Below are positions 4,917 to 25,000 of a stretch of DNA of 32,000 nt, in pieces. The DNA is from Candidatus Saccharimonadota bacterium (lineage in GTDB: Bacteria > Patescibacteriota > Gracilibacteria > UBA1369 > 2-02-FULL-48-14). Numbering within the stretch: position 1 is the first letter of the stretch; every line of letters starts with the position of its first letter. The notes beneath the pieces are model-generated. The model saw nothing but the letters and a program-made list of their open reading frames with translations. It had not been told where the DNA came from and searched no databases. A program made the position numbers and the translations under genes. The stretch covers positions 480,001 to 512,000 of the forward strand of contig CP064962.1 in assembly GCA_016699145.1 (NCBI GenBank). Direction: 5' to 3'.

Positions 4917-5153
4917 ATGAAAGCCCTTCTCGCCACTCTGCTCCTTGCCACTGTTCTTTGCGCCTGCAGCAAAATTGAAAGCGTCAAAAACGAAACCACC
5001 GAAGCCGTCGACAATCTACAAAACGAAGCCTTCGACTTCAAAAACGACCTAGATAAAACCGTGGACGAGGTGAACTCCGCCGTGGACTCTGTGGGTGACG
5101 CCGTCGATTCCGTAAACAAGGCCGTAAACGATGTGAAGGCCGTTACCCACTGA
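4917..5153 (+). CDS. small putative lipoprotein
   Basis: Signal peptide MKALLATLLLATVLCAC contains a lipobox-like L-C-A-C. The mature part is acidic with reiterated AVDS/VD motifs. Confidence 0.6.
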   Translation: MKALLATLLLATVLCACSKIESVKNETTEAVDNLQNEAFDFKNDLDKTVDEVNSAVDSVGDAVDSVNKAVNDVKAVTH

Positions 5154-6281: not shown

Positions 6282-7448
6282 ATGGACTCATTCAAACCAG
6301 AACAAGACCTGATAGTGATAGGTGGCGGCCCCAAGGGATTGGCCATGCACTGTGCTGCTCAAAGAAGCGGTTTAAACTCTCTACTTTTAGAAGTAGGGCG
6401 GCTCGGACAATCATGGGAAAAATCTCGTGTCTCTCCCACCCTACCCATCCGCCCACCCAATCTAGAAATCATTGGAGACGAAGCACAAGGATTCAAGGCA
6501 TACCTATCCTCTAGTGAAGCCCAAAAACTTCTTGCGAGCCACCCCATTCCTGAATCAGGACCGTGTGCTTTACATTTTCACGCTTATTTACAATGGTTGA
6601 AAGATAAGACCCCAAACATTCAAGAAGCCACTCCCTGTCAAAGACTTACAAAGAAAGAAGACTATTACCAAATCAATGGTGTTTGGAAAACAAGGAACGT
6701 GGTGGTTGCCACAGGACAGATTGGCTACGGAAAAGACGAATTTAGCTATGATGCAACACAAAAAGCCGACACAAAATTCGTGGCACACACTCCAGCACAC
6801 GTAAGAGATGAGGCAGGCTACCGTGAGTTTCTTGGAGCTGCAGAAGAAATTGCAATCGTGGGAGCCAATGCTGGAGCTTTAGGAGCACTATTTACACTGA
6901 ATGAAATCAATTTCACCGGCAAAGTACACCTCATTGGTCAATACAATGCCAAGGCAGAACTTCTTCAAGAATTACAGAGACAAGGTTGGGCTCTAGAAAA
7001 GCTACAAAACAGCTCCTTCTCTATTCAATACCACAATCATGGCAGTGTGGTGAATGCAGAAGTGGAAGCCAAACATGTCCTCTTGGATTTAATCAATCAC
7101 ACAAGACTCACCGTGGAGCGTTGTCTAGTAGCAACAGGCTATAGATTCGATGTGTCCAAAATTCCCTTCTTGCAAGAACTCATAAATACCGGCGCTCTTT
7201 TATTAAGCGACAACAAGCGTTATCCAAAATTGCAAAGTGATTTTTCGGCACAAAGCGAAGATGAACTCAGTGGTCTATTCTTCATGGGAACAGCGGCAGT
7301 GGCTGTAAACCCTCAGGAACGTTGGCTTGAGAGCACTAGGGAAACCGTAAATACTATCTTAAAAGCAATAGGTGAAAGGGCTTCTGATCACCAGCGTAGC
7401 ACCTTCACTTCCTCAGGATCATCCCCTGTTTCAGTGATGTATTTTTGA
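6282..7448 (+). CDS. FAD/NAD(P)-binding oxidoreductase (two dinucleotide-binding motifs; specific function unknown)
   Basis: DLIVIGGGPKGLAM (GxGxxG) is at the N-terminus. A second motif, IAIVGANAGALGA, lies mid-protein, and a C-terminal ...FFMGTAA motif is present. Confidence 0.6.
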   Translation: MDSFKPEQDLIVIGGGPKGLAMHCAAQRSGLNSLLLEVGRLGQSWEKSRVSPTLPIRPPNLEIIGDEAQGFKAYLSSSEAQKLLASHPIPESGPCALHFHAYLQWLKDKTPNIQEATPCQRLTKKEDYYQINGVWKTRNVVVATGQIGYGKDEFSYDATQKADTKFVAHTPAHVRDEAGYREFLGAAEEIAIVGANAGALGALFTLNEINFTGKVHLIGQYNAKAELLQELQRQGWALEKLQNSSFSIQYHNHGSVVNAEVEAKHVLLDLINHTRLTVERCLVATGYRFDVSKIPFLQELINTGALLLSDNKRYPKLQSDFSAQSEDELSGLFFMGTAAVAVNPQERWLESTRETVNTILKAIGERASDHQRSTFTSSGSSPVSVMYF

Positions 7449-18158: not shown

Positions 18159-19112
18159 CTACTCTTTAGAATAACCTTCAATGGCAGACAAACTCGAATA
18201 CCAATTGCGACTGATCTTGAAGGCATCAATCCTTCCACGACGTGCCAAGAGGCTCAAGTACTCCTGAGAATAAGGTGTTTTTTTAGCAAGTTCAGACAAA
18301 AGGAGATACTCTTCTTTTACGGAAGAAAAAGCACAGGCTTCCAAATATAAATCTAAAGATCGCTCAATGGCCTGTGCAACTAAGAGGTCCAATTTCTCAT
18401 AGTCCCCTTCATTGGCCTGATTCAGGGCATCATAATATTTTTTTCTATCATTTTTCAAAATAACTGCCGGCGGATAGCCCTTCTGCATAAGAGATAAATT
18501 CATCAAAAGCCTTCCCGTACGGCCATTTCCATCAAAAAAAGGGTGAATCCAAATAAAACGATGCTGAAGCTGAGCTGCAAAACACACTGGATTAAGCTGT
18601 TTTAGGCTTCGCTTCACCCATTCCATAAGCCTCTCCATAAGATCAGGCACTTTAAGTGGATTGGGGGGAACAAAGTTCGCCCCTGTAATACGCACTCGCC
18701 CATTGCGATACCGACCTGCAAAATCCTCCTCAATACCATCTAAAACCAAAGCATGTAGCTTAAGAATAATATCTTCCGTGAGTTTGGTCTTTTCTTTTAC
18801 CAACTGCATCAAAAATTGAATGGCCCTCTCATGATTTTTTGCTTCGAAATGCTCTCTTAAAGACTTCCCTTTGATGGTCACTCCATCCTCCAAAACCAGC
18901 TGAGTCTCCCGAAGCGTCAGGGAATTACCCTCAATAGCATTGGAGTTATAGGTCCAATCCAACGCGATTTGTTTCTGCAAACGCTCCAGCACACTTTTAG
19001 CTAAGGGCCTATGCCTGTCTAGTTCCTTCTTCTTTTTTTGAATGCGGACAAATATTTTCTGATTCATAATATCGGATAACTGCAAAAAGTATGGCATCCG
19101 ATATTCGTTCAT
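18159..19112 (-). CDS. fic: Fic family protein (putative AMPylase) with N-terminal inhibitory motif
   Basis: Fic core HPFFDGNGRTGR. SNAIEGN upstream matches (S/T)xxxE(G/N). The ATG at 19112 (MNEYRMPYF) sits 11 nt after an AGGAG; the track start is GTG at 19124. Confidence 0.85.
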   Translation of the reverse strand: MNEYRMPYFLQLSDIMNQKIFVRIQKKKKELDRHRPLAKSVLERLQKQIALDWTYNSNAIEGNSLTLRETQLVLEDGVTIKGKSLREHFEAKNHERAIQFLMQLVKEKTKLTEDIILKLHALVLDGIEEDFAGRYRNGRVRITGANFVPPNPLKVPDLMERLMEWVKRSLKQLNPVCFAAQLQHRFIWIHPFFDGNGRTGRLLMNLSLMQKGYPPAVILKNDRKKYYDALNQANEGDYEKLDLLVAQAIERSLDLYLEACAFSSVKEEYLLLSELAKKTPYSQEYLSLLARRGRIDAFKISRNWYSSLSAIEGYSKE

Positions 19113-19120
19113 GTCAAGGA

Positions 19121-19170
19121 CCACTCCTTTTGCAGGTTAAACGTGCTCCCCGGGGAGGAATTTACAGATT
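19121..19170 (-). repeat. copy 2 of the 50-bp dispersed repeat (inverted relative to 3659-3708)
   Basis: The reverse complement AATCTGTAAATTCCTCCCCGGGGAGCACGTTTAACCTGCAAAAGGAGTGG matches copy 1 at 43/50 positions. It lies immediately upstream of fic and includes its AGGAG. Confidence 0.85.
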
Positions 19171-19191
19171 ACAACGAAAAAAGCTTGACGT

Positions 19192-19412: not shown

Positions 19413-20198
19413 TTAGATCGAAAGGTGTAGCCGATTTTCAATAGCAGCACTCCTAAGAGTCAATACATCATATAGAAGCTTGTTCAGCTGGGGTTCAACA
19501 ACAGTAAAAGAAATGATCTTAAAGGCTGATGCATGATCTGTAAGCATTTTACGAATATCACGCTGTGCTTTTTGACTCATACCCTTAAAGGTTGTCTTTG
19601 TTGGAGCTAAAAAAGGCTTCTGCGAATCAAAGTAGCCCACAGAAGCACGCATAAATCGACCCATCTCCATCAACTCAGGTTTAGGTTGTGGATAAATTTC
19701 TTCTAGCTTTCTTATGAGGCGGTCGAAAGTCTCTTCAGTAAGCTTCGATAAGAAGTTTAAGATGAATTTCGGGTGCTTTTCCATTGCATCTTTCAAACTT
19801 GCAGATAGTGCACCAGTATTAACTTTTTCTTGAAAAATCGGGAGAACATCTGAGAATACATCCCTATCGGAATTAGCCACCTCTCCTTTGAAGTACTCTT
19901 GTTTATCTATAAGTTTCAGCCCAACAAGAAGCTTAAAGAGAAACCTATTCATTTCAAAAACAATGAACTCTGCTCGGGCTTGGTTTATCTGTCGCAATTG
20001 AGAATCCCTGCCATTCGCCAAAATTTTATCGAAAATAAATAGAGCGATACCGACAACAATTAAATTAGTTAGAATTCCTGTTAAAAAATTCACCCAATAA
20101 TCAACATCAAATGGCTCTGGGTGGATTCGAACAATGAAGAAGGTACAAATAGCAATCAATACCAACATGACGCAAGCAATCCACTTCTGAGATTTCAT
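19413..20198 (-). CDS. hypothetical membrane protein (two N-terminal TM helices plus ~190-aa soluble domain)
   Basis: 261-aa ORF. TM helices are WIACVMLVLIAICTFFIV and LTGILTNLIVVGIALFIF. No recognisable motif follows. Confidence 0.6.
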   Translation of the reverse strand: MKSQKWIACVMLVLIAICTFFIVRIHPEPFDVDYWVNFLTGILTNLIVVGIALFIFDKILANGRDSQLRQINQARAEFIVFEMNRFLFKLLVGLKLIDKQEYFKGEVANSDRDVFSDVLPIFQEKVNTGALSASLKDAMEKHPKFILNFLSKLTEETFDRLIRKLEEIYPQPKPELMEMGRFMRASVGYFDSQKPFLAPTKTTFKGMSQKAQRDIRKMLTDHASAFKIISFTVVEPQLNKLLYDVLTLRSAAIENRLHLSI

Positions 20199-20437: not shown

Positions 20438-20520
20438 GAGTGATCAGATGCCTCTAGTTTGACCTCTCAACATCGCAAAAATGCTCGCAGCCCCTGCATC
20501 TGCCAACCTGTAAATGAAAT

Positions 20521-21282
20521 TTATTTTGCGATGTTTCCACTGAAACGGTATCCAACACCTCTCTCCACGCTTATGCGAGTAGCGAGTTCTGGAATCTTTT
20601 TTAACCTCGAAATAGCCCGCGTAATTTCTTCTCGACTTGCCGATTCAAATCCAGTCGGGCCTTTTAATGCCACGGAGAGTGTTCCAAAAGTAAGAATCTG
20701 CCCAGCGCTTCTAATGAAGTACTTTAAGAGCCATAAGTCCGTTGGACGTAACGTAGTGCTCCGCACTGGCTTCCCGTTCAACTCCGCACGGATGCGAGTC
20801 TGAGAGGTGAAAATGGCAAGGCTTCCAAACTGAAGCACCTCTTCTCCTCCTTTGAGTGCTTGTTCGATTTCAGCTTGCTTGAGTAGGTCGAAATGAATCT
20901 TTTCTAGGATCGGCTCGTACTCCTTTCGTGAGAAAAGAACGTTGCCCTCGTTGCCAGCCAAGAGCTTTTTGAACTCTTTGCCCATGAGGGAGATGTGAAC
21001 GTGCTTTCCAGTAACATCATCAATTGAACCACCGATGAGCCGAACCCAATCCTTTCTCTCAAGGCTGTAGAGGTAGAGGAGGGCTAACTTTTCGATGTCC
21101 TTGGCATAACGCTCTACATCGATGCGATTGGCAGTGGTCTTTTGTAGAATCAGATACATGGCTGGATCGTTCAAAACCCCAGAAACGTATTCTACAATTC
21201 TGTTGAAAAACTGACTTTCATCTTTTGCAGCAGTGATGAGTTCAAAGCGAGACTTCAGTACGTTTAGCTGCGGTTCAAACAT
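20521..21282 (-). CDS. OmpR/PhoB-type winged-helix DNA-binding protein with an unrecognised ~170-aa N-terminal domain (no receiver domain)
   Basis: The C-terminus LRPTDLWLLKYFIRSAGQILTFGTLSVAL...REEITRAISRLKKIPE...ISVERGVGYRF follows the trans_reg_C pattern (LTxxExxLLxxL...RLRKKI...VRGVGYRF). Confidence 0.75.
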   Translation of the reverse strand: MFEPQLNVLKSRFELITAAKDESQFFNRIVEYVSGVLNDPAMYLILQKTTANRIDVERYAKDIEKLALLYLYSLERKDWVRLIGGSIDDVTGKHVHISLMGKEFKKLLAGNEGNVLFSRKEYEPILEKIHFDLLKQAEIEQALKGGEEVLQFGSLAIFTSQTRIRAELNGKPVRSTTLRPTDLWLLKYFIRSAGQILTFGTLSVALKGPTGFESASREEITRAISRLKKIPELATRISVERGVGYRFSGNIAK

Positions 21283-21288
21283 GCTGAA

Positions 21289-21297
21289 ATTGTAGCA
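21289..21297 (-). promoter_or_regulatory. extended -10 (TGCTACAAT) placed 6 nt from the ATG; candidate leaderless promoter
   Basis: The minus strand reads ...GGTATGCTACAATTTCAGCATG. The -10 box ends 6 nt before the start codon at 21282. Confidence 0.45.
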
Positions 21298-21308: not shown

Positions 21309-21554
21309 GCACCTTTTTCCTCTAAAAACTCCATCCAAAGTGAACAATTTGATCTGTTAATCAATTTTGAGTTTCTGGAGTGCCTTACATGCAACTTTTT
21401 CCTGCATAAACTCCGCACAAAATGCGCCTTTTGATCTGTAAATTAATTTTTAGTTTTTGCAGTGACCTAGGCGCACCTTTTTCCTCTCAAAAGTATTTCA
21501 AAAAGTCTCGACTTGACCTGTTAGGTCAGTTTGAGTTTTGACAGTAAGCAAACC
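21309..21554. repeat. three tandem, exactly phased 82-bp repeats
   Basis: Units are 21309-21390, 21391-21472 and 21473-21554. Conserved blocks are GCAMCTTTTTCCT (positions 1-13), TTGAYCTGTW (41-50), TTTGAGTTT-like (57-66) and AGT (71-73). Positions 21-40 are variable. Each unit carries a short dyad (TTGAT..ATCAA / TGACC..GGTCA). Confidence 0.9.
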
Positions 21555-21555
21555 G

Positions 21556-21765
21556 CTAGTTTTTAGGCCTCTGAGTATGCTTTCCCGCAAGTAAGTTCAT
21601 AAAGTACAGGAACCCCGTTGGAAGTAGGAAGAGGAAAAGACATGCAATCGCCCACGGCAGAGGGTTGTGACCAGTACGTGCAGCGTAAAGTGCTGTTTCT
21701 TTAGCGGCCCAGCCGAACGTGAATACATAAGCTGCTGCTAAGAAAATGAAAATGATGATGCCCAT
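21556..21765 (-). CDS. hypothetical small membrane protein (2 TM)
   Basis: 69-aa ORF with MGIIIFIFLAAAYVFTFGW and PWAIACLFLFLLPTGFLYF. It is divergent from the XRE gene. Confidence 0.5.
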   Translation of the reverse strand: MGIIIFIFLAAAYVFTFGWAAKETALYAARTGHNPLPWAIACLFLFLLPTGFLYFMNLLAGKHTQRPKN

Positions 21766-21841
21766 ATGAGGAGGGATAAGATTACTTTGCCATAAAGTAT
21801 CCCATTTTGGGTTATTCGAAAAGGGGATTTAAAGTTTTGGA

Positions 21842-22066
21842 ATGAAAAGCTTAAAAGATCCTCGCTATAGAAAGGTGGTCCAAGAATTAAAAACAGCTCG
21901 CCTTTCACGTAATTACACTCAAGAAGAAGTGGCCAAGCTGATAAAGAAGCCTCAGTCTTTTTTATCAAAAATAGAGAACTTCGAAAGGAGAATCGACATT
22001 ATCGAGTTATATGAGTTAATGAAAGTGTACGACTTAAAGTGGAATGAACTTACTCGGGGCTTTTGA
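21842..22066 (+). CDS. XRE-family helix-turn-helix transcriptional regulator
   Basis: LSRNYTQEEVAKLIKKPQSFLSKIENFERRIDI is a typical Cro/C1-type HTH. Confidence 0.8.
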   Translation: MKSLKDPRYRKVVQELKTARLSRNYTQEEVAKLIKKPQSFLSKIENFERRIDIIELYELMKVYDLKWNELTRGF

Positions 22067-25000
22067 AGCTACCCAAAAGCAAGGCGATGCTATCCAATAA
22101 AGCAAGCTTTTGGTCTTTCAAAGAAGCATGAACGACAATTGCCGATCGTGATTGCGATTCGTCCAAATACTTTCTACATAAAAGTGGTAGTAGTTTTGCA
22201 ACCCCTTGTCGATCGCTTTTACGAGCCTTCAAGAATTCAGTCAGAGTCAGAGTGAAGATTTTTTGAGAAGCATCCAGTGGAATGGCATCATCCATAATAA
22301 CCCTCGAAAGGAATTGGACAATAACTCCAAGGGCTACTTTTAGTTCCACCCCATATTCTTCAGACATCACCAACGGTAAGTTGAACTTTTTGATATTTTC
22401 TGGCTCAAGATACGAGATGGGACCGGAACCAAAAACCGCCTGCATCAATGCATCTGTCGTAACGGGTAAAAACCTACAACGGTAACCAGACAAGTACCTA
22501 AAGTAATCTAGGTACGAGCCAAAACTAAGCTTGCCAGTAAGCATCAAGGCTCGGACAAGGGCAAAAGAAGAACAGTACTTAGGCGGTTCTGCGGCTGCAT
22601 CACGTCCATATAAACGTAAACTCAAACCATCATCAGTTAAAATCGCTGAACCAGTTTCAGTGGCAAGTAGGTAGGCATCTTTCAACTCGTCCAATATGTC
22701 TATCTTTGGCTCAGCAGGAAGGTCTGACTTAGGTACAGCCAACTTTGAGCCAAAGTGCCCCTCAATAGCAGTAAGAGCGGCCTCCAAAACCTTTCTTGCC
22801 CTACTCAAATGCTCTTCTTGAACTTGAGAATATGTTAAGCGTCCGTTGGCGTAGCCCATGCGTCCAACCACACCGGGTACCGTACGGAACTTATCGAGGG
22901 CATCAAACAAAAAGTTCACTACAGATTGGGGTATCTGCAAGCCGGGGATATTTTCCAAAATTTCCTGCATCAAACCGGCCTCAGATAAAAAGAGTGCCGA
23001 AGTAACATCCAAATAACATTGCGCACCAGAAATGAGTTCTTTAGCAACGGCATCTTGTTTAGCCTGTTCAGCAAGTGAGCCATCGCTAAGCCAAATAAAT
23101 CCTCGCTGTTCTTGGACAATTTTACCAATTGCATTTGTCACTCCCCCTTGCTGATGAGCGAGAAAAACGAATGGCAAAGGACTCTGACAATACTGCTCGA
23201 AAGCACCATCCCTATCCGACTCCAAAGACTTCATAAACTCAGTCACATTATTGATGTCGAAGTTACCATTTTCATCCAAAACCTGAATAGATTGGATCAT
23301 AGGAGATCCATTTCTAGCGAATTCATTCATTGCCTCTCTAGCTCGCCAAAAAATATACTGTTCCAAAGAGAAAATTTGGGCGATCTTTCTAGGAGGTGTC
23401 CCAGAAAATTTATCACCGGAAAATTCTACAGTCTCTCCAACTTTTTTCCCCAAGACAACACCGTAACGTGGATCAGTAGTTCTTACGGACAATGCGTCCA
23501 ATTCAGCACCATCACCAAAGTGAAACCAACGTTCCTGATTATCAAACCTAACAAAGTTACCTTCTTGTACTTCGTCTTTGGAAATAAAGTTAAAGTCGTT
23601 TTCATCAAAACTACCAGATAAGCCAAACAGCATGCCATATTGTTCTTCGCTAGGCACTCCACAAGCCTGAAAACCCTCAACCACCGACCCGAGGGCCTCT
23701 TTTTTTTGACCAGACCTCAAATACAATTCTGCCTCAAGAAAGACCTTAAACTGAAAACTAAATCCAAATTTCGGATGAGAATTTATAAGTTCGATCGCTT
23801 CTTGATACTGGCCTCTTTTAAGGTAAGCCATGACCACACGTGCCAAAAGGGCCTCTAAGTTTTGAGCATCCAATAATTTAGGAGCCAGAGGGTCTTCCAA
23901 AAGTTGAGATCCAACAGAGATTACCTCCAAAAACTGGCCGAGGTTGAACTTTGCATTTAATAGATTGAGGCGAGATCGAAATAAGTCGATAGGTTCACTC
24001 TCTAGGGTCAGTAGCCTCTCTATCAGCTCAATTTGATCAACCCATGCAGCGACTTCACCAGTGACATCAACGCACAACCTAAGTTGGTTAATATCCAAGT
24101 TATCAATTTTAATTTCACGAAATGCCTCAAAAGCCTCCTTATGGTCTCCATTCTGGTGATGATAAAGCACCCAAGGAAGAGTAGTGCCTTCCTTATCGGA
24201 AGAAGTTTTCAACCACTCTAACAAAGCCTTTCTAATATCAGGAAAATCCTTTAGCGCCACAGTCATGTTATATGTGTATGCAGAGTCATCACCCAAAAAC
24301 TGGAGCACGCCAGTAAAATCACCATCCACTAAAGCACCGATAAAGTCGGTAACACTCTTTTCGCCGATAGCCTCAAAAAACTCCTTCCCCTTCCCAAGAA
24401 GTTGCCCTTTTATTAAAAACTGAAAAACAAGGGTCTTTACGAGACCCTCAGAAAGATTTTCATCGATAGACTTCAGATGACTGAGAAGTGCATCCAAATC
24501 CTGATCACCAACTACCCTCGAAAGTAGCTTCATTAACGCCTCCTCTACAACTGCATCATGTGGAACAACCAAGGACAGTGTTTTGACTTCAGAAAAAACT
24601 TTATCCAAGTCAGCAAATCGACTTTCCGCAGCCAGTATGTCTATCATCTCAACCAACATTGCCAATCTTTGCCTCTCAGAGTCTGTACGCCACATCTTCA
24701 TTTTAGCGAGAGTAGAGTCTATTAACTCAGAAAGACTCGACAGTTCAGCCTTTGTTACTGTCCCACGTTCTTTCCTTTTGAGTCGTCCATTCAACAAAGA
24801 AGCCTTCACCCGATAATTGACCAATGAGTCAGGATTAGCCCGTATTGCTTTCTCAATAAACTGGTCAGCTTTTGCAGTCTCTCCCGCAACCTCAAAACAT
24901 ATGCCATAGACCCTATAGCAGGTGGATGCAGCGCGATTCAAAGTCGGGAACGCAGATTCATCTAGAGTAGAAAGGTCAATTTGAGTACCTTGCCTCAAAT

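Follow-up and report, generated by a model that had tools for sequence, protein, structure and literature searches.

What does an array of long direct repeats do between two small genes of a bacterium from the candidate phyla radiation (CPR)? Such an array lies at 21309-21554 of a 32-kb stretch (32,000 nt; hereafter 'the window') of a Candidatus Peregrinibacteria genome. It could act through an RNA or as DNA, and its partner could be a protein encoded next to it or one that comes from elsewhere.

The array consists of three 82-bp units placed head to tail (21309-21390, 21391-21472, and 21473-21554), and their gap-free alignment confirms what had been read from the letters. The second and third units are 73% and 62% identical to unit 1, and the unit pairs share 60/82, 51/82, and 50/82 positions. 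When all periods from 30 to 200 bp were scanned over the whole window, period 82 at ~21300 ranked first with 0.671 identity over 164 compared positions (two periods), against 0.55 for the runner-up and a maximum of 0.588 in shuffled windows. Because the copies are less than 70% alike, Tandem Repeats Finder did not report the array. As for scattered copies of the kind known from REP, BIME, or MITE repeats, within the 32-kb window the A5-GGTGC block described below occurs in the array only and a hidden Markov model (HMM) of the unit finds no other copy. Two minus-strand genes flank the array, a 69-aa gene with its stop at 21556 and a 253-aa gene starting at 21282; of the 273 bp that separate them the array takes up 246, and thus fills nearly the whole intergenic space, as originally predicted.

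The conserved blocks that had been listed at unit positions 1-13, 41-50, 57-66, and 71-73 are all present. Positions 21-40, which had been called free to vary, are the most variable stretch, but A29-A31 and C37 within them are invariant among the window units. Read on the gene-sense (minus) strand, every unit begins with a 13-nt arm, ACT-NNN-AAAA(C/G)T(C/A), which is followed by an interior, an inverted arm, GA(G/A)TTT-NNNN-AG(G/T), and then AAAAA-(CA)-GGYRC. In the promoter-proximal unit, with its core at 21309-21381, the 5′ arm ACTCCAGAAACTC is at 21381-21369, the 37-nt interior at 21368-21332, the 3′ arm GAGTTTTTAGAGG at 21331-21319, and the A5-GGTGC block at 21318-21309. The middle core (21391-21463) has its 5′ arm ACTGCAAAAACTA at 21463-21451, its 3′ arm GAGTTTATGCAGG at 21413-21401, and an A5-GTTGC block at 21400-21391, while the distal core (21473-21545) has ACTGTCAAAACTC at 21545-21533, TACTTTTGAGAGG at 21495-21483, and A5-GGTGC at 21482-21473. 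All three cores are given in minus-strand sense.

An inner dyad had also been proposed for each unit. It is found in all three window units (TTGAT/ATCAA, TTGAT/ATTAA, and TTGACC/GGTCAG), but in unit 3 its register has moved by one base, and the two homologous arrays described below do not conserve it. The dyad common to all units of all three elements is the outer 13-nt inverted pair, formed on the plus strand by unit positions 11-23 with 61-73.

The array belongs to an island. GC content falls from ~49% to ~42% between ~18000 and 27565, delimiting a ~9.5-kb low-GC segment at whose edge lie a large serine recombinase gene (25840-27531, plus strand) and a tRNA-Glu gene (27491-27565, minus strand). 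The 3′ end of the recombinase gene overlaps the tRNA gene, and this is where the island ends on the right. A SoFic-like Fic protein and a 1237-aa HNH-TPR-PIN protein make up defense-type cargo, and the island also encodes an XRE regulator and several orphans. Searches with Pfam and PHROGs revealed no capsid, terminase, or structural genes in the island, and a replication protein family or fold turned up neither there nor in the two related elements.

Downstream of the array, the 253-aa gene (20521-21282, minus strand) encodes an orphan protein with a helical N-terminal part (residues 1-145) that has no match and a predicted winged helix of the OmpR/PhoB type (~145-250). The latter scores 25.8 bits against Pfam Trans_reg_C (E 1.1e-5), just below the cut-off of 26.2. 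Foldseek matches of the protein model (pLDDT 66) are PhoP, GlnR, PrrA, NsrR, and ToxR, the best with E 4e-3, and there are weak profile matches to RstA and OmpR-family chains. The protein lacks a receiver domain and has no match to a Rep family or fold and none in PADLOC. A terminator-like hairpin follows the gene on its 3′ side.

An extended −10 element, TGCTACAAT, can be read at 21289-21297 on the minus strand, with the hexamer TACAAT at 21289-21294. A promoter consensus scan found no two-hexamer promoter ahead of the 253-aa gene. Because the extended −10 element ends only 6 nt before the ATG, the sequence implies a leaderless mRNA. In the proximal unit, the A5 tract reaches to 19 nt upstream of TACAAT, which agrees with the original prediction that a conserved block covers the −35 region.

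On the other side, a gene for a 69-aa two-helix membrane protein (21556-21765, minus strand) is directly upstream of the array, with no terminator between them. Divergent from it is the gene for a 74-aa XRE-type helix-turn-helix regulator (21842-22066, plus strand; Pfam HTH_3, E 2.7e-11). The spacer between these two genes holds a conserved 33-bp block (21797-21829) with the palindrome TTTTGG-N6-CSAAAA. This block is separate from the array and is a probable operator of the XRE protein; the corresponding spacer is 81% identical between the two related elements.

Those related elements, the only two in the databases searched, are located on metagenome contigs L001-L004/L006 and L005 (L001 and L005 hereafter). 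The family of the 253-aa protein is very small, with three proteins among 5.8e9 and two clusters among 1.84e9 representatives, even when a profile was used. The winged-helix proteins of the relatives are 47% and 45% identical to the 253-aa protein. Their gene order is XRE (divergent), small lipoprotein, 66-aa membrane protein, array, winged-helix gene, 47-aa gene, large serine recombinase, and tRNA-Pro, and in L001 the recombinase and tRNA-Pro are arranged as the recombinase and tRNA-Glu are in the window. Both relatives carry the array at the matching position, so homologous islands do not lack the repeats. Alignment of the homologues, which had been proposed originally as a way to look for variation in unit number, did reveal it: three units in the window and in L001 (periods of 118 and 116, ~117 bp), but two of ~118 bp in L005, where the middle unit is missing. 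The extended −10 element is kept in all three elements, none of which has a −35 hexamer, and the distance from the A5 tract to TACAAT is 18-19 nt in each.

The interiors are 37-38 nt in the window units and 48 nt in the L001 and L005 units, thus 10-11 bp or one helical turn apart between element types and uniform within each array. A further ~30 nt per unit in L001 and L005 are decayed copies of the −10 region, which have been lost from the window units; pseudo-promoters in the L001 and L005 spacers were accordingly rejected as a conserved function. The gene-sense orientation is the homologous one between the window and L001 (z of 8.4 versus 2.4 in global alignment). The same values dismiss an inversion of the interior or of the whole array in the window, a candidate raised by TTTGATCTG seemingly lying on opposite strands. 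Unit identity is 0.63-0.81 within an element versus 0.42-0.56 between counterparts of different elements, which fits either concerted evolution or separate amplification. Strict unit-by-unit orthology had been considered since the middle units share CTGCA/TGCAG, but with identity higher within elements it was softened to a possible relationship.

Wider searches gave little more. Scans with the 253-aa alignment returned nothing from genome_contigs and viral_contigs and only the L001 contig again from metagenome_contigs. A scan of viral_contigs with the membrane-protein alignment gave nothing, nor did the specific motif and back-translated patterns in the same collection. The degenerate two-arm DNA pattern yielded only single chance matches, and the array had no BLAST match in the plasmid and phage collections.

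With two related arrays at hand, selection could be measured. Between L001 and L005, the unit cores are identical at 154 of 172 positions (90%), versus 115 of 177 (65%) for four-fold synonymous sites in five flanking genes (Fisher p 5e-8). Conservation is uneven within the cores, as the arms together with A5-GGCAC are identical at 73/76 positions versus 81/96 for the interiors (p 0.013). The array also persists among elements with proteins only 45-53% identical. Thus, the array is under purifying selection. All six frames of all three arrays contain stop codons, and 82 is not a multiple of 3. Because the cores exceed four-fold sites in conservation and every frame is interrupted, the array is functional as a nucleic acid, being neither a protein-coding sequence nor neutral debris. 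It is best explained as non-coding DNA that acts in cis within a small integrative island.

Signs of an RNA fold were sought in several ways. The folding energy of single units is ordinary on both strands, with z of ~−1 versus shuffles (−0.3 to −1.45, and one of +1.2). The consensus from RNAalifold contains only 5 pairs, at −3.2 kcal/mol, and Rfam gave no match even at E up to 10. On the other hand, the outer arms do pair: over eight units from the three elements, 81.7% of the arm cells are paired, a share that drops to 27-50% if the partner is shifted by 1-3 columns. In three arm pairs both sides are altered, and covariation scores 0.195 versus 0.08 in shuffles, of which 2/500 reach the observed score. 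These values are for the outer 13-nt arms; the inner dyad, for which covariation had been proposed, is specific to the window. The arm cells are Watson-Crick in 84 of 104 cases, strand-specific wobbles number 1 versus 3 so that no strand is favored, and two arm pair positions are mismatched in 4/8 units. We take the array to act as double-stranded DNA, with the compensatory arm changes remaining unaccounted for.

The idea of a tandem-repeat RNA, by analogy with type III toxin-antitoxin systems, does not survive these results, as there is no fold signal (z ~−1), no Rfam match, and no strand preference among wobbles. The toxin-antitoxin comparison is further weakened by what separates the array from the gene, which is a promoter where such systems have a terminator, and by a downstream protein that is predicted to be a DNA binder.

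A related sequence outside the islands comes from a phage. The membrane-protein profile led to a 64-aa homologue on an 18.7-kb contig (L134/L135, hereafter L134), which is that of a tailed phage encoding SSB, TerS (phrog_4102, E 1.4e-16), TerL, portal, and major capsid protein. Homologues of this TerS are found in Streptococcus phages and Streptococcus satellite phages. The 69-aa membrane protein and its L134 homologue have 70-79% amino-acid identity (tblastx), and by the same comparison the membrane-protein gene and the terS motif are all that the phage has in common with the islands.

When an HMM was built from the eight units, it matched inside the L134 terS ORF (model positions 58-86 at 5098-5126, E 1.3e-5). 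The 5′ arm of the unit matches L134 at 4993-5019 on the same strand, 105 nt upstream of the main HMM match. At the protein level, the phage sequence ACTCCAAAAACTC encodes TLQKL and GAGTTTTTAGAGGAAAAAGAGGCACTCAAGAAT encodes PEFLEEKEALKN, with 96 nt between them, and the two stretches together span the helix-turn-helix part of TerS. Searched in the reverse direction by blastn, the terS segment finds its best match in the window at 19/19 positions (21331-21313 to L134 5102-5120), and its best matches in L005 (26/29) and L001 (26/30) also fall in the array. Taken one by one, the units agree with one phage arm at 10-12 of 13 positions and with the other at 13-18 of 18. Only one phage contig with the motif was found. 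The exact 19-mer is absent from the 127 loci listed, a set drawn beforehand from 596 Gb with a degenerate form of the motif; GAGTTTTNNGAGGAAAAANNGGCAC could serve, beside the two-arm pattern, as a search motif for further phages and islands.

From this alignment, the units are best described as shortened non-coding descendants or copies of a ~134-bp terS stretch. The ends of the stretch are kept, namely the 13-nt arm on one side and the inverted arm followed by A5-GGCAC on the other, and the 96 nt in the middle have become 48 or 37 nt. At the proximal unit, the promoter hexamer TACAAT stands against TACAAG in terS, and the promoter of the 253-aa gene seems to have arisen on the last copy. A possible TerS origin of the N-terminus of the 253-aa protein, where TLEERFQFILDSE resembles TLQKLRFAFILGCTDSE, was rejected: hhalign gave E 0.35, the Smith-Waterman score was within the shuffle range, no PHROG terS matched at E up to 10, and the N-terminal model resembled only generic helical bundles. 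The original prediction had not considered small-terminase homology, and hence not a function as a packaging signal.

In phages that package by the headful mechanism, pac sites are often inside terS, and the pac site of P22 is inside its TerS gene (PMC9611059). In the satellite PLE, a stretch of 89 bp mimics the pac region of phage ICP1 at 71% identity, and transduction requires the 14-bp identical core within it (PMC11417361). For the L134 phage, we assume that the pac site is likewise inside terS.

We conceived that the array could be a tandem mimic of a phage packaging site, i.e., of a pac or TerS-binding site, and give this reading a probability of about 40%. It is suggested because the array consists of selected, non-coding, tandem terS copies with a 19-bp identical core, on an island that has a recombinase and defense genes but no packaging genes. 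The terS stretch would be all or part of the phage pac site, and its kept ends would be the recognition sites of the phage packaging machinery, TerS and then TerL. TerS would bind the units, and an island with two or three tandem mimics of the helper pac site would be packaged into phage heads, either after excision by the serine recombinase or in situ by headful packaging. With the promoter of its gene apparently built on the last copy, the 253-aa protein may bind the array too. A more definite version, in which a multi-copy pac mimic made of shortened terS fragments serves to package the ~9.5-kb defense island, or in which the array is a DNA-only decoy for TerS, is offered tentatively and with less confidence.

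Other features are consistent with the packaging reading: the array position is kept in both related elements, and the island has an integrase, regulators, and defense-type cargo but no structural genes that the searches could detect. Several points weigh against it. The motif comes from a single phage contig. The units lack the central 50-60 nt of the phage stretch, and the compensatory arm changes are not predicted by the model. No replication gene was found in the island, whereas characterized satellites replicate before packaging (PMC10803314). The fixed position at the winged-helix promoter in 3/3 elements is equally well explained by regulation. The likeness to terS could thus reflect ancestry only, with the array now doing something else.

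Regulation is the strongest competitor. Here the 253-aa OmpR-type protein would bind the conserved blocks and activate or repress its own leaderless gene, the terS likeness being ancestral only. The proximal unit would sit over the −35 region as PhoB does at pho boxes, and the upstream units would act cooperatively. Both the general form and this detailed arrangement are plausible enough to be kept in view, although we consider each less probable than the packaging reading. The array and the orphan gene occur together in all three elements with the same 18-19 nt from A5 to TACAAT, the C-terminal domain matches OmpR/PhoB DNA-binding domains, and its predicted recognition helix (R..E[IL][TS]RA[IV]SRLKK) hardly varies within the family of three proteins, just as the arms and A5-GGYRC are the most conserved DNA. 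Changes of interior length by one helical turn between element types, uniform within an array, also suit a protein bound along the DNA, and the 253-aa homologue is absent from the phage stretch seen so far. However, OmpR-family sites are short direct repeats with a period of 10-11 bp, and no such sub-repeat is common to all units: the window linkers contain GGYRC-N6-GGYRY pairs, which are missing from L001 and L005. Spectral peaks of the A/T tracts lie at 11.5-13 instead of 10.5 and are harmonics of the unit length; curved DNA with 10.5-bp phasing was rejected on the same ground. Moreover, this reading leaves unaccounted for a 19-nt identity with phage terS when the shared protein is only 60-79% identical, and the motif occurs in the phage without the regulator. 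The operator originally suggested for an OmpR-type protein therefore holds up in part: the array is conserved, DNA-like, and adjoins the promoter of an OmpR/PhoB-type winged-helix gene, but the expected 10-11 bp sub-repeat is not found in all units.

The remaining explanations appear much weaker. Hairpin modules, whose folded arms would be active as RNA or single-stranded DNA, for example as a 3′ UTR element for processing or stabilizing the transcript of a membrane-protein operon, would make sense of the arm pairing (81.7%), the three two-sided changes, and a covariation score of 0.195 that 2/500 shuffles reach, and of the missing terminator between the upstream gene and the array. We nevertheless regard them as improbable, in view of ordinary folding energies on both strands, an RNAalifold consensus of only 5 pairs at −3.2 kcal/mol, an empty Rfam search at E up to 10, wobbles without strand preference (1 versus 3), two pair positions mismatched in 4/8 units, and an interior without structural conservation. 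Many iteron plasmids have direct repeats beside the rep gene that overlap its promoter. The array likewise adjoins the winged-helix gene and overlaps its promoter, and no other candidate replication function exists in the island, so that the excised island might have an iteron-type origin at which the 253-aa protein initiates replication; yet the units of 82-117 bp are four to five times the iteron length, and the protein matches no Rep family or fold. Furthermore, the nearest DnaA-box-like 9-mers (TTWTNCACA) are at 19687 and 19372, ~1.6 kb or more away, and an array GC content of 38-41%, close to the 41-44% of the island, leaves no AT-rich unwinding region. The replication iterons envisaged in the original prediction are thus very improbable. 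Least probable of all is a decaying relic, i.e., functionless tandem duplicates of a terS pseudogene fragment. Units made from coding DNA that now has stops and frameshifts, and a varying copy number (2-3) and unit length (82-118 bp), are what a relic would produce, but it is contradicted by L001 and L005 cores that are 90% identical versus 65% at neutral sites, by conservation concentrated in the arms and A5-GGCAC, and by retention of the array across elements with proteins 45-53% identical.

Since the packaging and operator readings are not exclusive, the array is most likely a packaging-signal mimic and/or a repeat operator, that is, protein-binding DNA rather than RNA, as far as can be judged from its sequence. 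Mobile elements and phage-host interplay of CPR bacteria are almost unknown. To our knowledge, no phage satellite has been described so far in candidate-phyla bacteria, and we know of no earlier case of a tandemly amplified pac mimic. If the packaging reading is true, this island would be the first satellite-type 'hitcher' in these bacteria and its array the first tandemly amplified pac mimic. It would show a route by which tiny defense islands without replication or structural genes spread among reduced-genome, largely uncultivated bacteria, and would point to terS as the gene in which an uncultured phage probably has its pac site. If the operator reading is true, coding DNA of a phage gene would have been reused as a long-period regulatory array.

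Known repeat systems resemble the array to different degrees. In ToxI/ToxN, too, a short tandem array immediately precedes a gene, but the island units are 82-118 nt rather than ~36 nt (34-45 nt), have no stable fold, and are followed by a promoter instead of a terminator, and the product is a predicted winged-helix DNA binder, not a ToxN/AbiQ-type RNase. Iterons are repeats of 17-22 bp phased at ~22 bp, and sopC units are 43 bp. The array shares with them tandem direct repeats with an internal inverted repeat beside a gene for a DNA-binding protein, whereas its units are far longer than iterons, and the island lacks Rep, ParA, ParB, DnaA boxes, and an AT-rich region. Pho boxes, OmpR F1-F3, and SARP heptads consist of 7-10 bp half-sites with 10-11 bp spacing and 20-bp units. 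As in those systems, a gene with an OmpR-type domain is beside direct repeats, the last of which covers the −35 region where no −35 hexamer exists. The island units are much longer, at 82-118 bp, and the 253-aa protein, which has no receiver domain, is a candidate binder only.

Among satellites, copies of cos or pac sites are also present in PICIs/SaPIs and P4. PICMIs of Vibrionaceae are likewise islands of very small size, in which an integrase and regulators accompany anti-phage cargo and no capsid-remodeling or packaging genes are present (PMC10803314). They depend wholly on a helper phage and encode replication functions, with no pac site identified (PMC10803314); our island has no recognizable replication gene. 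The island also differs in carrying a large serine recombinase, and it has no sequence relationship to PICMIs.

The closest likeness is to PLE and ICP1, where a terminase-less integrative element carries a non-coding stretch resembling the phage packaging region, with weaker similarity around an identical core, which is 14 bp in PLE and 19 bp in the island array (PMC11417361). The island copies differ in having been amplified to two or three tandem, internally shortened modules, and their phage counterpart is inside terS rather than intergenic. The island is in a CPR bacterium, and its helper, replication, and packaging are putative. TerS targets with several sites include pacL/pacR of SPP1 and cosB (R3-R2-R1) of lambda. 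The array resembles such targets in having several potential TerS contact blocks separated by spacers, and it resembles P22 gene 3 in that the phage sequence is inside the terS ORF (PMC9611059). Known pac or TerS sites are boxes of 16-22 bp, whereas those of the island would be modules of 73-86 bp with inverted arms.

The winged-helix gene, which adjoins the array of three 82-bp units, is preceded by TGCTACAAT in the window's island (21283-21297) and in the related elements on metagenome contigs L001 (7985-8003) and L005 (4401-4419). In all three elements its ATG lies 6 nt past this sequence and a Shine-Dalgarno sequence is absent ahead of the ATG; as judged from sequence, translation would probably proceed from a leaderless mRNA. 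The spacer 3′ of the gene (window 20438-20520, minus strand; L001 8757-8858) has a common block, AAATTT-N3-TTTMCAGGTTRG, in the window and L001, where a hairpin with a T run is also kept. The proteins of these two elements are 47% identical. The GTTTTGCGAG motif from the distal array unit recurs in the L001 spacer hairpin, in its arms TCTCGCA/TGCGAGA.

On the XRE side, a block of about 33 bp with the palindrome TTTTGG-N6-CSAAAA (window 21797-21829; L001 about 7015-7050) is kept in all three elements, in the spacer separating the XRE gene from the next one. This block is probably the XRE operator or divergent promoter.

When the window was searched for 13-mers resembling the array's inverted arms (ACTSYAAAAACTC, at most 2 mismatches), 16 were found against 4.6 expected. 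Eleven lie outside the array, 8 of them within the island, and one of these 8 directly adjoins tRNA-Glu; arm-like 13-mers occur at 19079-19091, 23219-23240, 23924-23936, 24371-24383, 24866-24878, 25682-25694 and 27574-27586. Separately, the middle-unit interior at 21429-21444 has a near-copy (88%) in inverted orientation, AATTTACAGATTACAA, upstream of the Fic gene at 19159-19174.

The large serine recombinase and its neighboring tRNA occupy 25840-27565 in the window and 9065-10781 in L001. The recombinase ORF and the tRNA gene, which lies on the opposite strand, overlap at their 3′ ends in each element, by about 40 nt for tRNA-Glu in the window and about 58 nt for tRNA-Pro in L001, and therefore the integrase reading frame seems to cross the attachment junction. 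The defence cargo of the island probably includes a SoFic-like Fic protein (18159-19124) and a 1237-aa protein (22050-25763, minus strand). The latter begins with an HNH-like nuclease region (PADLOC PDC-M68A, E 9e-27) at its N-terminus and also has TPR repeats and a PIN domain of the type seen in the TPR-GreAB-C-PIN conflict system (PF20698, slightly below cut-off). Upstream of the XRE gene, both L001 (5725-6770) and L005 (2214-3295) encode an HTH_3 protein and, after it, a Peptidase_M78 (ImmA/IrrE-type) protein. Such repressor/antirepressor pairs are typical of mobile elements that can be induced; the window's island has none.

Outside the island, a 350-bp unit is tandemly duplicated at 28452-29153 (2.0 copies, 99% identity) in overlapping ORFs. 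Judged by eye, the unit resembles the core of a DDE (rve-type) transposase, and the duplication could be an assembly artefact or very recent.

The TerS of the tailed-phage contig L134 (4625-5374), whose gene contains a stretch matching the array units, combines an N-terminal zinc-ribbon-like CPHC motif with a phrog_4102 core. Its closest annotated relatives are from Streptococcus phages and Streptococcus 'satellite phage Javan' records (search hits H5-H10), and known satellites therefore also carry this TerS type.
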